Of a stretch of DNA of 64,000 bases, positions 17,163 through 52,486 are shown piece by piece. The stretch is from positions 26,764 to 90,763 of the forward strand of contig CASDUK010000001.1 in the NCBI GenBank assembly GCA_949283975.1, given 5' to 3'. Position 1 is the stretch's first letter. Each line of letters opens with the position of its first letter. The position numbers were made by a program, and so were the translations under genes. The notes below the pieces were generated by a model. It was not told the DNA's origin. It saw nothing but the letters and a program-made list of their open reading frames with translations, and did no database searches. Source of the DNA: an uncultured Bacillota bacterium (GTDB lineage Bacteria; Bacillota; Clostridia; Christensenellales; UBA1242).

Positions 17163-17175
17163 TTTTCTAAAATCG

Positions 17176-17204
17176 TTGACAACTTGGAATTTTTGTGCTA
17201 CAAT
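17176..17204 (+). promoter_or_regulatory. sigma-A type promoter of the str operon
   Basis: TTGACA, 17-nt spacer, TACAAT. Confidence 0.7.
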
Positions 17205-17345
17205 TGCGCCAGCAATTTGGCAAAAGTTTGCAAGTTGAACTGCGGAAATTATCCGTGGGAAGTCGAAAGACTTTGGGGTTTTAAGGTTGAGTCTTAGGAC
17301 TGGTTCAAATCTGAAATCCTAAAAGTAATTTTTTTGACGTTATTT

Positions 17346-17373
17346 GGCTTGCAAGATGCAAGCCATTTTTGTT
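17346..17373 (+). terminator. intrinsic terminator/attenuator inside the rpsL leader
   Basis: ggcttgca-aga-tgcaagcc hairpin followed by atttttgtt. It sits ~140 nt downstream of the promoter and 44 nt before the rpsL ATG. Confidence 0.6.
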
Positions 17374-17416
17374 GCCAAAAGGCGAGTTTGGGCTTTGCCC
17401 TTAAAAGGAGAGTGTT

Positions 17417-17788
17417 ATGCCAACAATTAACCAGCTTGTTAGAAAGGGAAGAAAGAGTTTTGACGACAAAAGCAAATCTCCGCTTCTAGACGAGTGTCCT
17501 CAAAAACGCGGCGTTTGCCTTTCGGTTAAAACAACTTCGCCAAAGAAACCTAACTCTGCGCTAAGAAAAATTGCAAGAGTAAGGCTTTCTAACAAAAGTG
17601 AAGCAACGGTTTACATTCCAGGAATTGGCCACAACCTTCAAGAACACAGTGTTGTTTTGGTTAGGGGTGGAAGAGTTAAAGACCTTCCAGGTGTTAGATA
17701 TCACATAGTTCGTGGAACACTTGACGCGGCAGGCGTTGCAAAAAGAAATCAAAGCCGCTCAAAATATGGCGCTAAACGCCCAAAATAA
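17417..17788 (+). CDS. rpsL: 30S ribosomal protein S12
   Basis: 123 aa, [12 protein letters not shown]... Confidence 0.97.
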
Positions 17789-17809
17789 ATTTATTAAAAG
17801 GAGAAAAAT

Positions 17810-18283
17810 ATGCCAAGAAGAAATAGTGCTGTCAAAAGAGATGTTCTTCCAGACCCAATGTATAACAGCAAACTTGTAACAAAACTTATTAACCAAGTTA
17901 TGTTAGATGGCAAGAAGGGCTTAGCGCAATCAATTGTTTATGGCGCATTTGACAGAGTTAAAGAAAAACTTGGTCTTGAACCGCTTGACGCTTTCAACCA
18001 AGCGCTTGAAAACACAAAACCTCTTCTTGAAACAAAGGGAAGAAGAGTTGGCGGTGCAACATACCAAGTTCCAATGGAAATTAGGCCAGAACGCCGCCAA
18101 ACCCTTGCAATTCGTTGGATTGTAACTTTTGCAAGAAAGCGCAACGGCGAAAGAACAATGGAGGAAAGGCTTGCTGGCGAATTAATTGATGCATACAACA
18201 ACACTGGCGCTGCTGTTAAAAGAAAGGAAGAGATGCATCGTATGGCTGAGGCTAACAAGGCTTTTGCTCACTACCGCTGGTAA
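17810..18283 (+). CDS. rpsG: 30S ribosomal protein S7
   Basis: 157 aa, [20 protein letters not shown]... Confidence 0.97.
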
Positions 18284-18288
18284 AACTT

Positions 18289-18800
18289 CCTTAAATTGGT
18301 TTATACTGTGTCGCTTCGGTTTTTTTGAACTCTCATGTATTATTCATACACTTCAGTCCAAAAAAACCTGTGCTCCTTGTCTAAACGCAATTTAAGAAAG
18401 TTTTAAAAAAGCTAAGGATTTCCTTAAATTGGTTTATACTAGCGCCCTTTCGGTTTTTTTGAACTCTCATGTATTATTCATACACTTCAGTCCAAAAAAC
18501 CCTGTGCTCCTTGTCTAAACACAATTTAAGAAAGTTTTAAAATCTAAGGACTCCTTAAATTGGTTTACACTGCGTCGCTTCGGTTTTTTGAACTCTCATG
18601 TAGCAGTCTACACATCAGTCCAAAAAAACCTGTGCTCCTTGTCTAAACACAATTTAAGAAAGTTTTAAAAAAGCTAAGGATTTCCTTAAATTGGTTTATA
18701 CTGTGTCGCCTCGTGTTTTTTGAACTCTCATGTAGCAGTCTACACATCAGTCCAAAAAACCCTGTGCTCCTTGTCTAAACACAATTTAAGAAAGTTTTAA
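18289..18800 (+). repeat. four tandem copies of a ~131-133 bp long-hairpin element (candidate structured RNA or REP/MITE-like unit)
   Basis: Copies start at 18289, 18422, 18553 and 18684. Each has inverted arms CTTAAATTGGTTTA/TAAACnCAATTTAAG, inner arms GG-T7-G/C-A7-CC, and an apical 5-bp stem. Compensatory differences occur between copies. Confidence 0.85.
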
Positions 18801-18909
18801 GTTTTTTTAAAAATAGTTCGAGTTTAGCTGAAATTAGCGGACAAAGATTTGATTTCTTCAAATTTTTAAGATAATTTCCAAGCTTTGGAAATTTAAGGAG
18901 GTTTTAAGT

Positions 18910-19206
18910 ATGTTTATTGAAAAATTGGAAAGAACAGACTTAGAAACTTTTGGCAAAGATTATTTAAATTTGGAAGTTGATGAGTTTGAAAAGCTTGACG
19001 AAAGCGTTTATGTTAGGTTTAGTCATAAAACTTTTGAAGATGTTTTCGAGTTTACATTTTCAGATTTTAATTGCCTTGGCCTAAACGATCTTTCAAAAGG
19101 AACAGAAAAAGGCGTTCAAATATTGTATAGGCGCTTTATGGCCGAGAAATTTGGAAATTATAGCAACCAAATAACAAATGATGCCGGAGGGCAACCAGAA
19201 TTTTAA
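18910..19206 (+). CDS. acidic 98-aa protein, unknown function, inserted between rpsG and fusA
   Basis: Strong SD (taaggagg, 8 nt before the ATG). Ends 25 nt before fusA. I recognise no motif. Confidence 0.6.
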   Translation: MFIEKLERTDLETFGKDYLNLEVDEFEKLDESVYVRFSHKTFEDVFEFTFSDFNCLGLNDLSKGTEKGVQILYRRFMAEKFGNYSNQITNDAGGQPEF

Positions 19207-19231
19207 AAATTAATTTATAAAGGAGAAAAAA

Positions 19232-21304
19232 ATGGCTGAAGATTTACGTTTGACCAGAAACGTTGGAATTATGGCACACATCGATGCGGGAAAGACAACA
19301 ACAACAGAAAGAATTCTTTTCTACACCGGAAAGAGCCACAAAATTGGTGAAGTTCATGACGGCCAAGCAACAATGGACTGGATGGCTCAAGAACAGGAAA
19401 GAGGAATTACAATTACTTCTGCCTGCACAACATGCCAATGGAATGGTCATAAAATCAACATCATCGACACCCCAGGCCACGTTGACTTTACAATTGAAGT
19501 TTTGCGTTCGTTAAAGGTTTTGGACGGGGCTGTTTTGGTTTTGAGCGCAAGAGATAAAGTTCAACCTCAAACAGAAACAGTTTGGCGCCAGGCAACAGAA
19601 TGTAAAGTTCCAGTTATCATCTATGTTAACAAAATGGATAGAGATGATGCATATTTCGACAAGTGTGTTGACAGCGTTAGAGAAAGGCTTCACACAACGC
19701 CGCTTCCTCTTCAAATGCCAATTGGAATGGCAGAAACATTTAAAGGCGTTATTGACCTTTTGAAGATGAAAGCATACATTCCAGAAGACGACCTTGGAAA
19801 GATTATTGACGAGGTTGAAATTCCAGAAGAATATAAAGCAGAGGCAGAAAAGAGAAGAAGCCAACTTATAGAAGCAATTGTTGAAACAGACGATGCTCTT
19901 TTGGAAAAATATTTTGAGGGAGAGGAAATTTCAATTCAAGAATTAAACAAAGCAATTCGCGCGGCAACAATTTCAAAGAAAGTAACGCCAATGCTTTGCG
20001 GCTCTTCCTATAAAAACAAAGGCGTTCAAAATCTTTTGGACGCAATGGTTGAATATCTTCCATCGCCTCTTGACATTGAGGCAATTAAGGGAATTAACCC
20101 AGAAACAGGAAAAGAAGAAAGCAGAGAAGCAGATGTTAAAGCGCCTTTTGCAGGCCTTGCATTTAAAATTGCAACAGACCCGTTTGTTGGCGGGTTAACT
20201 TTCTTCCGCGTTTACAGCGGTGTTTTAAAAGCAGGTTCATATGTTTACAACTCAATTACCGGAAAAACCGAAAGAGTTGGAAGGCTTATTAGAATGCACG
20301 CAAACAACAGAACAGAAATTCAGGAAGTTGGAGCGGGAGATATCGCAGCAATTGTTGGCCTTAAAGATACAATAACTGGCCACACGCTTTGCGATGAAAA
20401 ACACCCAATTCAACTTGAAAGCATGAATTTCCCAGAGCCAGTTATTCAACTTGCAATTGAGCCTAAAACAAAGGATATGCAGGAAAAAATGGCGCTTGCG
20501 CTTGCAAAGCTTTCCCGTGAAGACCCCTCTTTTAGGGTTTCAACAAACAGCGAAACAGGGCAAACTCTTATTGCCGGAATGGGTGAGCTCCACCTTGAAA
20601 TTATTGTTGATCGCTTGCTTCGCGAGTTTAAAGTTGAGGCAAATGTTGGCCAACCACAGGTTTCCTATCGTGAAACAATTACAAGGCCGGTTAAGGCAGA
20701 GGGTAAATATATCCGTCAGTCCGGCGGTAAAGGACAATATGGCCACTGCTTAATTGAAATGGAACCGCTTGAAAGAGGAGCGGGGTATGAGTTTGTTGAC
20801 AAAACAGTTGGCGGCTCAATTCCAAAAGAATATATCCAGCCAATCAACAACGGAATTAAAGAGGCAAAAATGTGCGGAGTTTTGGCAGGATATGAAACGG
20901 TTGACTTTAGAGTTACTGTTTATGACGGATCTTTCCACGAAGTTGACTCCTCAGAAATGGCCTTCAAAATTGCCGGCTCAATGGCATTTAAAGATGGCGC
21001 AACAAAAGCTGGCCCAGTTCTGCTTGAGCCAATTATGAAAGTTACTGTTGAAGTTCCAGATGAATATCTTGGAACGGTTATGGGAAACCTTACAAGCCGC
21101 CGAGGAATCCTTCTTGGAAACGACACAATTCCGGGCGTTCAAAGAATTAACGCAGAAGTTCCTCTTGCAGAAATGTTTGGTTATGCAACAGATTTGCGTT
21201 CTCAAACCCAGGGGCGCGGAACTTTTGTTATGGAGCCTCTTAAATATCAGGAAGTTCCAAAGTCAATTACCGACAAAATTGTTGGTGAAAGAGCTAAAAA
21301 ATAG
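19232..21304 (+). CDS. fusA: translation elongation factor G
   Basis: 690 aa with AHIDAGKTT and DTPGHVDF motifs. Confidence 0.97.
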
Positions 21305-21390: not shown

Positions 21391-22593
21391 ATGGCAAAGG
21401 AAAAATTCGACAGGTCTTTAACCCACGTTAACATTGGAACAATTGGCCACGTTGACCACGGAAAGACCACACTTACGGCTGCTATCTGCCGTTACAGCAA
21501 CATGCTTGGTCTTGCTGATGCTATGAAATATGATGAAATTGATAAGGCACCAGAAGAAAAAGCAAGAGGTATTACCATCAATACTGCACACGTTGAATAC
21601 AAAACAAAAAAGCGCCACTATGCACACGTTGACTGCCCAGGACACGCAGACTATGTTAAAAACATGATTACTGGTGCTGCTCAAATGGACGGAGCTATTT
21701 TGGTTGTTTCAGCAGCTGATGGCCCAATGCCTCAAACAAGAGAGCACATCTTGCTCGCTCGTCAGGTTGGCGTTCCATACATTGTTGTATTTATGAACAA
21801 AGTTGACCAAGTTGACGACCCAGAACTTTTGGAACTTGTTGAAATGGAAATTCGTGATCTTTTAACAGCTTATGGATTCCCAGGAGACACAACTCCAATC
21901 ATTAAGGGTTCTGCATTAAAAGCAAACGAAGCTTGCGATGCAAACGACATCAACAGCGAATGGTTAAAGCCAATTCAAGAACTTCTTGACACAATTGACT
22001 CTTACATTCCAGACCCTGTTCGTGAAACAGACAAGCCTTTCTTGATGCCAGTTGAAGACGTCTTTACAATTACAGGACGTGGAACTGTTGCAACAGGAAG
22101 AGTTGAAAGAGGAGTTGTTAAAGTTGGTGACACAGTTGAAATTGTTGGCCTTGGTGCACAAAAACAAACTGTCGTTACAGGCGTTGAAATGTTTAGAAAA
22201 CTTCTTGATGAAGCTCAAGCAGGAGATAACATTGGTGTATTGCTTCGTGGTATCACTCGTCAAGAAATTGAAAGAGGACAAGTTCTCTGCAAACCAGGTT
22301 CAATCCACCCACACACAGAGTTTACAGCAGAAGTTTACGTCCTTAAGAAAGAAGAAGGCGGACGCCACACACCATTCTTCAATGGTTATAGGCCTCAGTT
22401 CTACTTCAGAACAACAGACGTTACAGGAACAATTGAACTTCCACAAGGAGTTGAGATGGTTATGCCTGGCGACAACGTTAGTATGACAATCAAATTGATC
22501 TCACCAATTGCTATCGAGCAAGGTCTTCGCTTTGCTATCCGTGAAGGCGGAAGAACTGTTGGAAGCGGTGTTGTTGCACAAATTATCAAATAA
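21391..22593 (+). CDS. tuf: translation elongation factor Tu
   Basis: 400 aa with [10 protein letters not shown] and DCPGHADY motifs. Confidence 0.97.
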
Positions 22594-30828: not shown

Positions 30829-30903
30829 GGTGACCCCGCCGGGACTCGAACCCAGAACAAAGCCTTAGGAGGGCTCCGTAATATCCGATTTTACTACGAG
30901 GTC
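30828..30903 (-). tRNA. tRNA-Arg (anticodon CCU), CCA encoded
   Basis: Hand fold of the minus strand gives acceptor GACCTCG/CGGGGTC, D arm GTAA..TTAC, anticodon stem GAGCC/GGCTT with loop CTCCTAA, and T arm CTGGG-TTCGAGT-CCCGG. Discriminator is A, followed by CCA. Confidence 0.85.
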
Positions 30904-51271: not shown

Positions 51272-52486
51272 ATGGCGCTTTCAAAAGGGAAAAAGGTTTT
51301 AATTGCAATTGTTGGGGCGGTTGTTACAATTGGAGCAGTAATTGGAACTGTTTTTGCGGTTAAAAAAATAAAGGAAAATGTTGAAATGACGGACAGGCCA
51401 GGAATTACAACGCCGGTAAACCCAGGGCAAGGCGATGAAGGGCAAAAACCCGGGCAAGGCGATGAAGGGCAAAACCCTGGACAAGACGAAGGGCAAGAAC
51501 CTGGGCAGGGCGACGAAGGGCAGCAAGGCGGAGGCGATGAAGGTCAAAAACCCGGGGAAGGCGATGAAGGGCAAGACCCAGGACAAGGCGACGAAGAGCA
51601 CCCGGGCGGAGGCGATGAAGGGCAAGAACCTGGGGAAGGAGACGAAGGGCAGCAAGGCGGAGGCGATGAAGGAAGCGGCGATGAGACTCCAGGAATTTCA
51701 GAAGAAGAATATTATGAAAAGAATTTGGATTTAATAAAGGCTGCGCTTGTTGAAGAATATTCAAAAGATAATCCAAAGCGAACCTTAATTTTAGATGAAG
51801 ATAGTATTGTAATTAATGAAGCGCTTGGTGAGATTTATTTTGCTGGGCATACACAGGGAGGCTTAGGAGCCGTTAAGAATTTGTTTTTCACAGCGAAATT
51901 TGATAATAATATACTTTCGCATTCTCAAGAAAAAATATATGAAATACTAAACAGTAAAACTTATGACATAAACTTTACTAATATAAAGTCTATTCGAGGA
52001 AATTTATCAACAGAAGTTTACAACGAATTTTCAAACTATCTTTTAAAGCAAAAGTATGATTTTAATGGAAAAGGCCTTTCCTTTAGCAAAGAGGCAATAG
52101 TTTTAAATATTTCAGAATTCAAAGATGGAGATGCATTTGGAGGGCAGTATATTCAATTTCTAGTTATAGACGGAAATATGATTTACACGGCGCGCCTTGA
52201 AAACGCTATGCCAGCATCAATGGGAGATATTGCAATTAGTCAAATAATGGGCTATAGTAACAACGTTTTTAAGATTACTGCGGTTAACGATTTTGCGGAA
52301 TTTGGAGTTGACGGAGCAGAGCAAGGCGGAGGCGAAGCGGAGAATGCCGGATATGTTTTGGATTTATCGGAAGTTCCAATATCCAAAGCAGAGGCCGCGT
52401 CTTTGGCATTTGATATATGGTCATTAAACCCAGAGAAAGATATGGACGTTATACTTCCAGCGAATGATTCGGGTTTAGAGATGTAA
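51272..52486 (+). CDS. membrane-anchored protein with an acidic G/Q/D/E octapeptide-repeat linker, unknown function
   Basis: 404 aa with an N-terminal TM segment (VLIAIVGAVVTIGAVIGTVFAV), a repeat linker and a ~260-aa C-terminal globular part. SD aaaggag upstream. Confidence 0.65.
   Translation: MALSKGKKVLIAIVGAVVTIGAVIGTVFAVKKIKENVEMTDRPGITTPVNPGQGDEGQKPGQGDEGQNPGQDEGQEPGQGDEGQQGGGDEGQKPGEGDEGQDPGQGDEEHPGGGDEGQEPGEGDEGQQGGGDEGSGDETPGISEEEYYEKNLDLIKAALVEEYSKDNPKRTLILDEDSIVINEALGEIYFAGHTQGGLGAVKNLFFTAKFDNNILSHSQEKIYEILNSKTYDINFTNIKSIRGNLSTEVYNEFSNYLLKQKYDFNGKGLSFSKEAIVLNISEFKDGDAFGGQYIQFLVIDGNMIYTARLENAMPASMGDIAISQIMGYSNNVFKITAVNDFAEFGVDGAEQGGGEAENAGYVLDLSEVPISKAEAASLAFDIWSLNPEKDMDVILPANDSGLEM
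51421..51685 (+). repeat. degenerate 24-bp (8-codon) tandem repeat encoding (P)GQGDEGQx units
   Basis: About ten units of ggcgatgaagggcaaaaacccgggcaa-like sequence. Locally G+C-richer than the surroundings. Confidence 0.8.

Follow-up and report, generated by a model that had tools for sequence, protein, structure and literature searches.

A tandem array of hairpin units behind rpsG in an uncultured Clostridia bacterium, a candidate structured RNA element of the str operon

The str operon of an uncultured Bacillota bacterium was analyzed in a 64-kb stretch of contig CASDUK010000001.1 (64,000 nucleotides, hereafter the window), in which an array of four hairpin-forming units follows rpsG, the gene for ribosomal protein S7 (uS7). 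Tentatively, and with slightly less than even confidence, we take the str mRNA to contain a lineage-specific structured RNA that acts in cis and probably regulates by binding a factor, the four units being copies of it that arose by recent duplication. Support for a structured cis-RNA comes mainly from hairpins in related species and not from the four copies of the window. A structured cis-RNA had already been suggested in an earlier note on this DNA; it is retained here as a serious candidate by virtue of the covariation in the related hairpin family, the folding of unrelated unit interiors and the scarcity of substitutions in stems, but not by virtue of the four copies on which the note had relied.

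Tandem repeats in the window were located with Tandem Repeats Finder, and the free energies of folds were scored against dinucleotide shuffles (z). A single array was obtained at 18287-18800 (period 132, 3.9 copies, 90% matches, score 819), by a wide margin the strongest repeat of the window, and the alignment of the units and the positions of their motifs likewise bore out the four tandem units of ~131 bp described earlier. The units are arranged head-to-tail, measure 131-133 bp, and consist of an imperfect hairpin of ~107 nt and a linker of ~25 nt (23-26 nt). Their 5' arms (CTTAAATTGGTTTA) begin at 18290, 18423, 18554 and 18685, their 3' arms (TAAACnCAATTTAAG) finish at 18396, 18530, 18658 and 18790, and in all four the outer arms are CTTAAATTG-GTTTA and TAAAC-n-CAATTTAAG, i.e. 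terminal inverted repeats of an imperfect palindrome. The apical stems TGTAT..ATACA (units 1-2) and TGTAG..CTACA (units 3-4) were found as described, as was TAAGGA in all three linkers (18413, 18545 and 18675). With the rpsG stop codon ending at 18283, the first core stem starts ~6-7 nt downstream, from 18290. On the plus strand the fold obtained for each unit was, in agreement with the earlier note, a single long hairpin with imperfect pairing (-26.8 to -31.3 kcal/mol, z -2.5 to -4.7).

To place these units in a wider context, relatives were sampled as EF-G homologues at 88-94% identity, one of which its source assigns to Christensenellales, together with an unbiased set of 80 RpsG loci; individual loci carry L numbers. 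The rpsG-fusA spacers were mostly compact (5-90 bp) in distant lineages and 50-710 bp long in the near clade. Related hairpins of ~125 nt, for which the name R family was coined here and the covariance models R1 and R2 were used, were found in relatives at 88-92% EF-G identity, in four species-level lineages: an abundant sister species (L023-25, L109-126), L036, L027/28 and L031. They start 1-7 nt after the stop codon of the upstream ribosomal protein gene, which is rpsG in all carriers except L031, whose units are found in the spacer from rpsL to rpsG.

The R family is well supported as an RNA structure. Of the 32 pairs that RNAalifold gave for eight units, aligned with MAFFT independently of the model, 19 had double compensatory changes. 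In a 21-unit alignment fitted to the model, 94.9% of cells were paired, vs 26-44% with slid partners, 22 of the 32 pairs covaried, and the covariation score of 0.382 compared with 0.113 for shuffles (0 of 500 reaching the observed value) and at most 0.088 for slid controls. While the helices changed, there was no variation in the loop strands YGCGUUUCUG, AGUCA, CUCCU and CGAGCCUYG, which is the usual signature of a factor-binding RNA. As the invariant GUUU/GAGC segment pairs through G.U alone, the mRNA-sense strand is favoured, and R-family models scored 130 bits on the plus strand vs ~50 bits on the minus strand.

In the sister species, the spacer measures 237, ~320, 384-396 or 463-474 bp among strains whose EF-G protein is the same; it is composed of two full units that are paralogues (Ralpha and Rbeta), of mini-units with internal deletions and, in one case, of a chimera. 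Within one species, Ralpha and Rbeta differ at nearly all helix positions, with both still paired. The mini-units, found in the spacers of L110, L112, L115, L117 and L126 (chimera included), keep the outer stem and the GAGCCUYG strand.

For the window species, the strain set was composed of metagenome contigs encoding an identical RpsG protein or an identical ORF98, the small open reading frame (ORF) that follows the array; strains of this clade share ~91-95% identity in ordinary flanking genes, and the set yielded 34 distinct units from 16 loci. The rpsG-ORF98 gap ranges from 256 to 638 bp across strains and holds 1, 2, 3 or 4 units. The outer arms and the 5' strand UACUGYGUCRCUUCG are common to the units, but the interiors are of three unrelated types (A, B and C) or hybrid. 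The window has type A; type B mostly stands at the end of an array, and L004 has a single unit, which is of type C. Each of these types, the hybrid included, forms plus-strand hairpins of -23 to -31 kcal/mol, with a minus-strand range of -11 to -46 kcal/mol. Variable columns numbered 6 of 64 among paired positions vs 22 of 44 among unpaired ones (Fisher p = 3.5e-6); in the window clade, substitutions avoid paired columns, which speaks for structural constraint on the stems. Remnants of units occur in L011 and in L022, the closest outgroup, which has kept just the outer arms of a window-type hairpin. Unequal recombination or slippage between the repeats would gain, lose, truncate and recombine units, and would in this way account for the 1-4 copies per strain.

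The relationship of the window units to the R family was assessed by running R2 with filters off over both strands of the 64 kb. Three of the array units took ranks 1-3 and the remaining one rank 7, with full-length, in-register matches on the plus strand; at the strain loci, 12 of 13 R2 matches were type-A units, and R-model scores over window and strain units were 17-26 bits. Slot, size and architecture are common to both groups, and judged by these sequence comparisons a shared descent is plausible. The window hairpin would then be a local, diverged member of a family of ~105-125-nt hairpins restricted to str-operon intercistronic spacers, whose hosts would be uncultured human-gut Christensenellales-like Clostridia.

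The gene order in the window is rpsL-rpsG-[array]-ORF98-fusA-tuf, with the identity of rpsL, rpsG and the genes for EF-G and EF-Tu confirmed by NCBIfam equivalogs. The array thus lies after rpsG, as the earlier note had placed it, but ORF98 (18910-19206), and not fusA, is directly downstream; it and a 119-bp tail precede fusA at 19232. As there is a strong promoter upstream of rpsL, and no terminator-like site is predicted in 17790-19400 and hence none between rpsG and ORF98, the array should be inside the transcribed operon and would be carried as part of the str-operon mRNA. In the proposed mechanism, the hairpin on this mRNA would bind a trans-acting factor in a cis role and set the translation and/or the decay of the neighbouring cistrons. 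Feedback by uS7, the candidate ligand, is a possible but rather doubtful form of this step, drawn from the E. coli precedent described below; of the specific mechanisms it would be the most likely one because of the invariant loops, the restriction to the str operon and the position of the units in L031, and the hairpins do lie in the mRNA of the operon that encodes uS7. That the copy-number-variable array serves as a tunable operator, or as a sponge, for uS7 or a different translation factor is unlikely. A CsrA-type GGA sponge was considered and set aside: judged by eye, GGA is present in linkers of the window and in the apical loops of some R units, but L027 has none and in L036 it is altered.

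Several observations weigh against reading the array as a regulatory RNA. Under R2 the window units reach 16.8-23.7 bits (E 0.017-0.94), which is weak beside the 96-135 bits of true members and could be explained by generic similarity between long hairpins; R-family loop motifs are not recognisable in them, and types B and C are without the type-A 3' loop strand. The compensatory changes between copies, which the earlier note had offered as evidence for structure, do not serve as such: in 20 distinct type-A units from the strains, none of the 32 consensus pairs carries a double change, and, while the G-T6/A6-C state of the T7/A7 boundary pair is present in unit 4, mismatched T7 + A6C is the commonest state among strain units, so that this argument is weak. 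The motif TGTGCTCCTTG, formerly called invariant, is identical in the window's four units (at 18369, 18503, 18631 and 18763), but is replaced by TGTGCTTCTTG in several strain units. The variation from 1 to 4 units is seen between strains with identical RpsG, which is unusual for a regulatory operator, and close relatives with spacers of 50-90 bp lack the element, which is therefore dispensable. First units diverge between strains by a mean of 5.3%, compared with 2.5% at the four-fold sites of rpsG and 9.7% at those of fusA; because this divergence is not below that of the rpsG sites and only about half that of the fusA sites, purifying selection on the whole unit is not demonstrated. In the sister species, unit 1 of L126 is a chimera of an Rbeta 5' half and an Ralpha 3' half with broken helix pairing. 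Concerning the strand, the window units are more stable on the minus strand (-37 to -41 kcal/mol) than on the plus strand, and the wobble count outside the invariant helix (8 G.U vs 12 A.C) is uninformative. Mimicry of the uS7 site on 16S rRNA was rejected as well: the R-family loop strands, with the central hairpin removed, resembled 16S 1378-1399 (CGUUCCCGGGCCUUGUACAC), but in a sequence-level test against E. coli rrsH only 2 of 7 queries landed there, with p = 0.16-0.97 vs shuffled queries.

The same locus could also be a neutral or selfish palindromic variable-number tandem repeat (VNTR), confined to a single tolerant intergenic spot, changed by slippage or unequal recombination and devoid of a regulatory role, an explanation that we regard as somewhat unlikely yet deserving of weight. 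It accommodates the 1-4 copies at identical RpsG, the internally deleted mini-units, the remnants in L011 and L022 and the chimera with its broken pairing, the type-A units without covariation, a unit divergence comparable to that of near-neutral sites and the absence of the element from some close relatives; the slot also gains unrelated small ORFs, suggesting a permissive site. Stems would persist here since the copies are young, or since palindromes are repaired or converted as units. It accounts poorly for the R family, which keeps its pairing through many double changes, with asymmetric loops invariant, in at least four species-level lineages, a combination not produced by neutral drift. 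Nor does it explain that Ralpha and Rbeta are both paired despite differing at nearly all helix positions, that substitutions avoid stems, or that three unrelated interiors all fold.

The hairpins might instead punctuate the mRNA, as RNase III-type sites and/or exonuclease barriers that separate rpsL-rpsG from ORF98-fusA-tuf for independent decay or translation, more copies making for a stronger barrier. REP/BIME stabilisers and the E. coli rplL-rpoB spacer are precedents for barriers of this type, and we give the proposal a low probability. Long coaxial helices of ~40 bp with internal loops directly after a stop codon would suit it, and tandem copies that vary in number are what one would expect of barriers. 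Of 43 expanded spacers between rpsG and fusA, taken from many lineages, 49% fold at z < -2, a wider pattern that counts for the main reading as well; some have terminator-like hairpins and others are long hairpins without a U-tract. A perfect hairpin stands directly 5' of the ORF98 Shine-Dalgarno sequence, as for a processed, stabilised 5' end. Set against this are the units of L031, placed between rpsL and rpsG, whose proteins are needed in equal amounts, the invariant asymmetric loops, which exceed the needs of a simple barrier, and the lack of a U-tract or terminator signature.

A product of the minus strand, i.e. antisense small RNAs, or DNA hairpins or cruciforms, with the functional strand opposite the operon, is very improbable. 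Type-A units do fold better there (-33 to -46 vs -23 to -31 kcal/mol on the plus strand), with twice as many G.U pairs in the minimum free energy (MFE) folds, but types B and C and unit U20 fold far worse (-11 to -19 kcal/mol), no minus-strand promoter or terminator was found flanking the array, and both the R-model scores and the GUUU/GAGC wobble pairs, which form on the plus strand only, point the other way.

Hardly credible is the idea, raised in the earlier note, of a dispersed mobile hairpin (MITE, REP/REPIN, ERIC or Correia-like) that landed here several times, even though an imperfect palindrome of ~107 nt with terminal inverted repeats in a transcribed intergenic region has an ERIC-like shape. 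No further copy was found in the 64-kb window with nhmmer and blastn. A scan for the pattern of conserved termini, covering one genome for each of 185,579 species, returned a single locus in a single genome, an uncultured Clostridia metagenome-assembled genome, in the same rpsG-ORF-fusA position, and nothing that matches the element turned up among viral contigs, phages or plasmids; the REP/MITE reading is unsupported for these reasons. Covariance-model matches outside str spacers were absent from ~0.4 Mb of relatives' DNA, the scope over which the tolerant model was run rather than a complete genome of the species, and no direct duplication flanking the single units of L004 or L011 was obvious by eye. 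Because the non-palindromic linker was duplicated along with the hairpin, tandem duplication is indicated and not repeated insertion.

That repeat mis-assembly created or inflated the array is a negligible prospect: several short assemblies end at the array edge (L015-L017, L019, L020), which leaves the exact copy number of any one short-read assembly uncertain, and the window's exact four-unit order is reproduced by no independent contig, but the units differ at diagnostic positions, arrays are present at this site in 16 independent contigs, the sister species behaves alike, and the very same 4-unit array was twice obtained from independent samples (L001 = L006, L008 = L009), for which reason 4-unit arrays are taken as real and the artefact envisaged earlier as a refutation is set aside.

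As the earlier note had stated, the element belongs to no known family. Searches of the whole window against Rfam 15 at gathering threshold gave a single match, a tRNA at 30831-30903, and searches of eight related loci at the same threshold gave none; relaxed scans of the array and of the relatives' spacers returned noise-level matches to miRNA hairpins, far below gathering scores. No description of the array element was found in the literature. An intrinsic terminator or attenuator does not fit, as the stem bases are A+U-rich and followed by AAAGUUUUAAAA, with no U-tract, and neither does a CRISPR array, as the whole period of 131-133 bp repeats at 90-94% identity and unique spacers are absent. 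Within the units, the promoter search gave a single 9/12 match at 18516-18543, not above the shuffled expectation. Two candidate peptides were dismissed by eye: a 23-codon ATG frame in the hairpins of units 1-2, which has no Shine-Dalgarno sequence and is destroyed by TGTAG in units 3-4, and TAAGGA-TTG frames from the linkers, which are of unequal length between units and were judged non-coding. Coordinates of the array and of the surrounding operon are given in Table 1.

Table 1. Features of the str operon and of the hairpin array in the window (A, unit type; R2, covariance model of the R family).
Feature	Position	Strand	Basis
str-operon promoter (TTGACA, 17-nt spacer, TACAAT)	17176-17181, 17199-17204	+	sequence read
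rpsL leader, structured, with terminator-like hairpin 17345-17365	to 17416	+	fold and terminator prediction
rpsL (ribosomal protein S12)	17417-17788	+	TIGR00981, 218.9 bits
rpsG (ribosomal protein S7)	17810-18283	+	TIGR01029, 229.5 bits
Unit 1 hairpin, type A, apical TGTAT/ATACA, T7/A7 all paired	18290-18396	+	fold -31.3 kcal/mol, z -4.69; R2 23.7 bits, top window match
Linker 1 (AAAGTTTTAAAAAAGCTAAGGATTTC), part of the repeated unit, TAAGGA 18413-18418	18397-18422	+	sequence
Unit 2 hairpin, type A, apical TGTAT/ATACA, variant 5' loop strand TAGCGCCCTTTCGG	18423-18530	+	R2 23.1 bits
Linker 2, TAAGGA 18545-18550	18531-18553	+	sequence
Unit 3 hairpin, type A, apical TGTAG/CTACA, T6/A7	18554-18658	+	R2 16.8 bits
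Linker 3, TAAGGA 18675-18680	18659-18684	+	sequence
Unit 4 hairpin, type A, apical TGTAG/CTACA, G-T6/A6-C	18685-18790	+	R2 20.4 bits
Tail (119 bp): U-rich stretch, 9-bp hairpin 18873-18893, Shine-Dalgarno AAGGAGG 18895-18901	18791-18909	+	sequence
ORF98, 98 aa, strong Shine-Dalgarno	18910-19206	+	no family match
fusA (EF-G)	19232-21304	+	TIGR00484, 1102.8 bits
tuf (EF-Tu)	21391-22593	+	EF-Tu models, ~740 bits

ORF98 had no match to a Pfam or NCBIfam family, and its relatives comprise just 6 clusters among 5.8 billion proteins; to judge from these sequence searches, it is a predicted lineage-restricted small protein. In L031 (104 aa, 38% identity) and L027 (116 aa, 27%), the corresponding position is taken by a diverged homologue. 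Within the species, ORF98 falls into two allele groups (83% vs 98-100% nucleotide identity) despite rpsG identities of 98-99%, and the tail between the array and ORF98 likewise has two alleles among strains. An AlphaFold2 model (pLDDT 64) shows the order alpha-beta-beta-beta-alpha; a Foldseek search against the PDB returned a best E of 0.2 with TM scores of at most 0.42 and no double-stranded RNA-binding domain, and ORF98 was rejected as a double-stranded RNA-binding protein. R-family hairpins are moreover present in the absence of any ORF98 homologue. In the tail, the perfect 9-bp hairpin at 18873-18893 (AATTTCCAA-GCT-TTGGAAATT) ends 1 base 5' of the ORF98 Shine-Dalgarno sequence and is kept in both tail alleles; it could stabilise a processed 5' end on the ORF98 side.

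The rpsG-fusA spacer appears to be a hot spot for gaining small genes and hairpins. Unrelated small ORFs occupy this slot in close relatives (56 aa in L022, 2728-3000; ~52 aa in L032/L033), and in L035 (1975-2675; RpsG 80% identical) an unrelated repeat of ~265 bp, present in at least 2.5 copies, comes after rpsG, with no fusA within 700 nt. Very long hairpins without a match to the R model were also seen right after rpsG in more distant lineages: one in L056 (1972-2206), whose arms are (AAATGAAAAATG)n and its complement, a near-perfect 27-bp stem in L100, an irregular hairpin of ~130 nt in L089, and others in L087 and L097.

At the other end of the operon, the rpsL leader of ~210 nt (17163-17416 region) follows a strong sigma-70-type promoter and has an MFE of -83.6 kcal/mol (z -4.66); it is 97-98% conserved among strains vs 76-92% for the neighbouring ORF283. 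Without a counterpart in Rfam, this region resembles an attenuator in the rpsL leader. Elsewhere in the window, a tandem repeat with a period of 27 nt (51418-51672, ~9 copies, 71-84% matches) lies within a 404-aa ORF (51272-52486), where it forms a coding, repetitive segment rich in G/Q/D/E/K/P.

Should the regulatory reading be true, strains would adjust the ratio of ribosomal proteins to elongation factors through the gain or loss of hairpin units, and a VNTR-type regulatory RNA would reside inside one of the most conserved operons of bacteria; the array, if functional, would be a simple genetic dial on the stoichiometry of the translation machinery. The element is a concrete candidate for a str-operon RNA, absent from Rfam, in widespread uncultured human-gut bacteria. 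Covariation in the sister lineages together with the invariant loop strands points to a specific ligand, and variation between 1 and 4 units at identical S7 protein is unexpected for an RNA of a ribosomal operon. For these genomes, the locus is in addition a natural strain marker (VNTR) and a recurrent break point of short-read assemblies.

The E. coli str operon is repressed by uS7 at a structured spacer between rpsL and rpsG, translational coupling extends this repression to fusA, and str-operon regulation outside the Gammaproteobacteria is acknowledged as not worked out (PMC10931766, PMC3616713). Like the E. coli uS7 operator, which controls rpsG and the coupled fusA, the element described here is a hairpin-rich structured RNA of ~100 nt between cistrons of the str mRNA, with the related units of L031 in exactly the rpsL-rpsG spacer. 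It differs in that it follows rpsG in most genomes, has no similarity to the operator at the level of sequence or Rfam, and is tandemly amplified with strain-level copy variation; the resemblance of its loop strands to 16S rRNA is not significant.

The str-operon RNAs of streptococci and Pelagibacter are similarly lineage-specific, structured and presumed to be ribosomal-protein feedback elements, and as here they can take alternative positions in the operon, among them the one immediately upstream of fusA. In streptococci they are attenuators of the terminator type, whereas the present hairpins have no U-tract; the Pelagibacter motif is a three-stem junction, whereas the present element is a single long hairpin; and none of them has been described as a tandem array.

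The dispersed repeats of the ERIC (a 127-bp imperfect palindrome), REP/BIME, Correia and RUP families occupy tens to hundreds of loci per genome and can modulate mRNA stability. The element resembles them in size, in being an imperfect palindrome with conserved termini, in its transcribed location just after a stop codon, and in forming tandem clusters whose copy number differs by strain; unlike them, it is confined to one operon, and in the R family different species have kept the same loops, with covariation in the stems. RNase III processing hairpins, such as the early sites of phage T7 and the E. coli rplL-rpoB spacer, are also long and irregular, with internal loops, lie between genes of polycistronic mRNAs and can be repeated along a transcript; they show no sequence relationship to the present hairpins, for which cleavage is hypothetical, and the L031 position between equimolar proteins misfits simple punctuation. 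Among these systems, the element fits a known kind, the lineage-specific structured RNA of a ribosomal-protein operon, and what sets it apart is the tandem amplification and the variation of copy number between strains.

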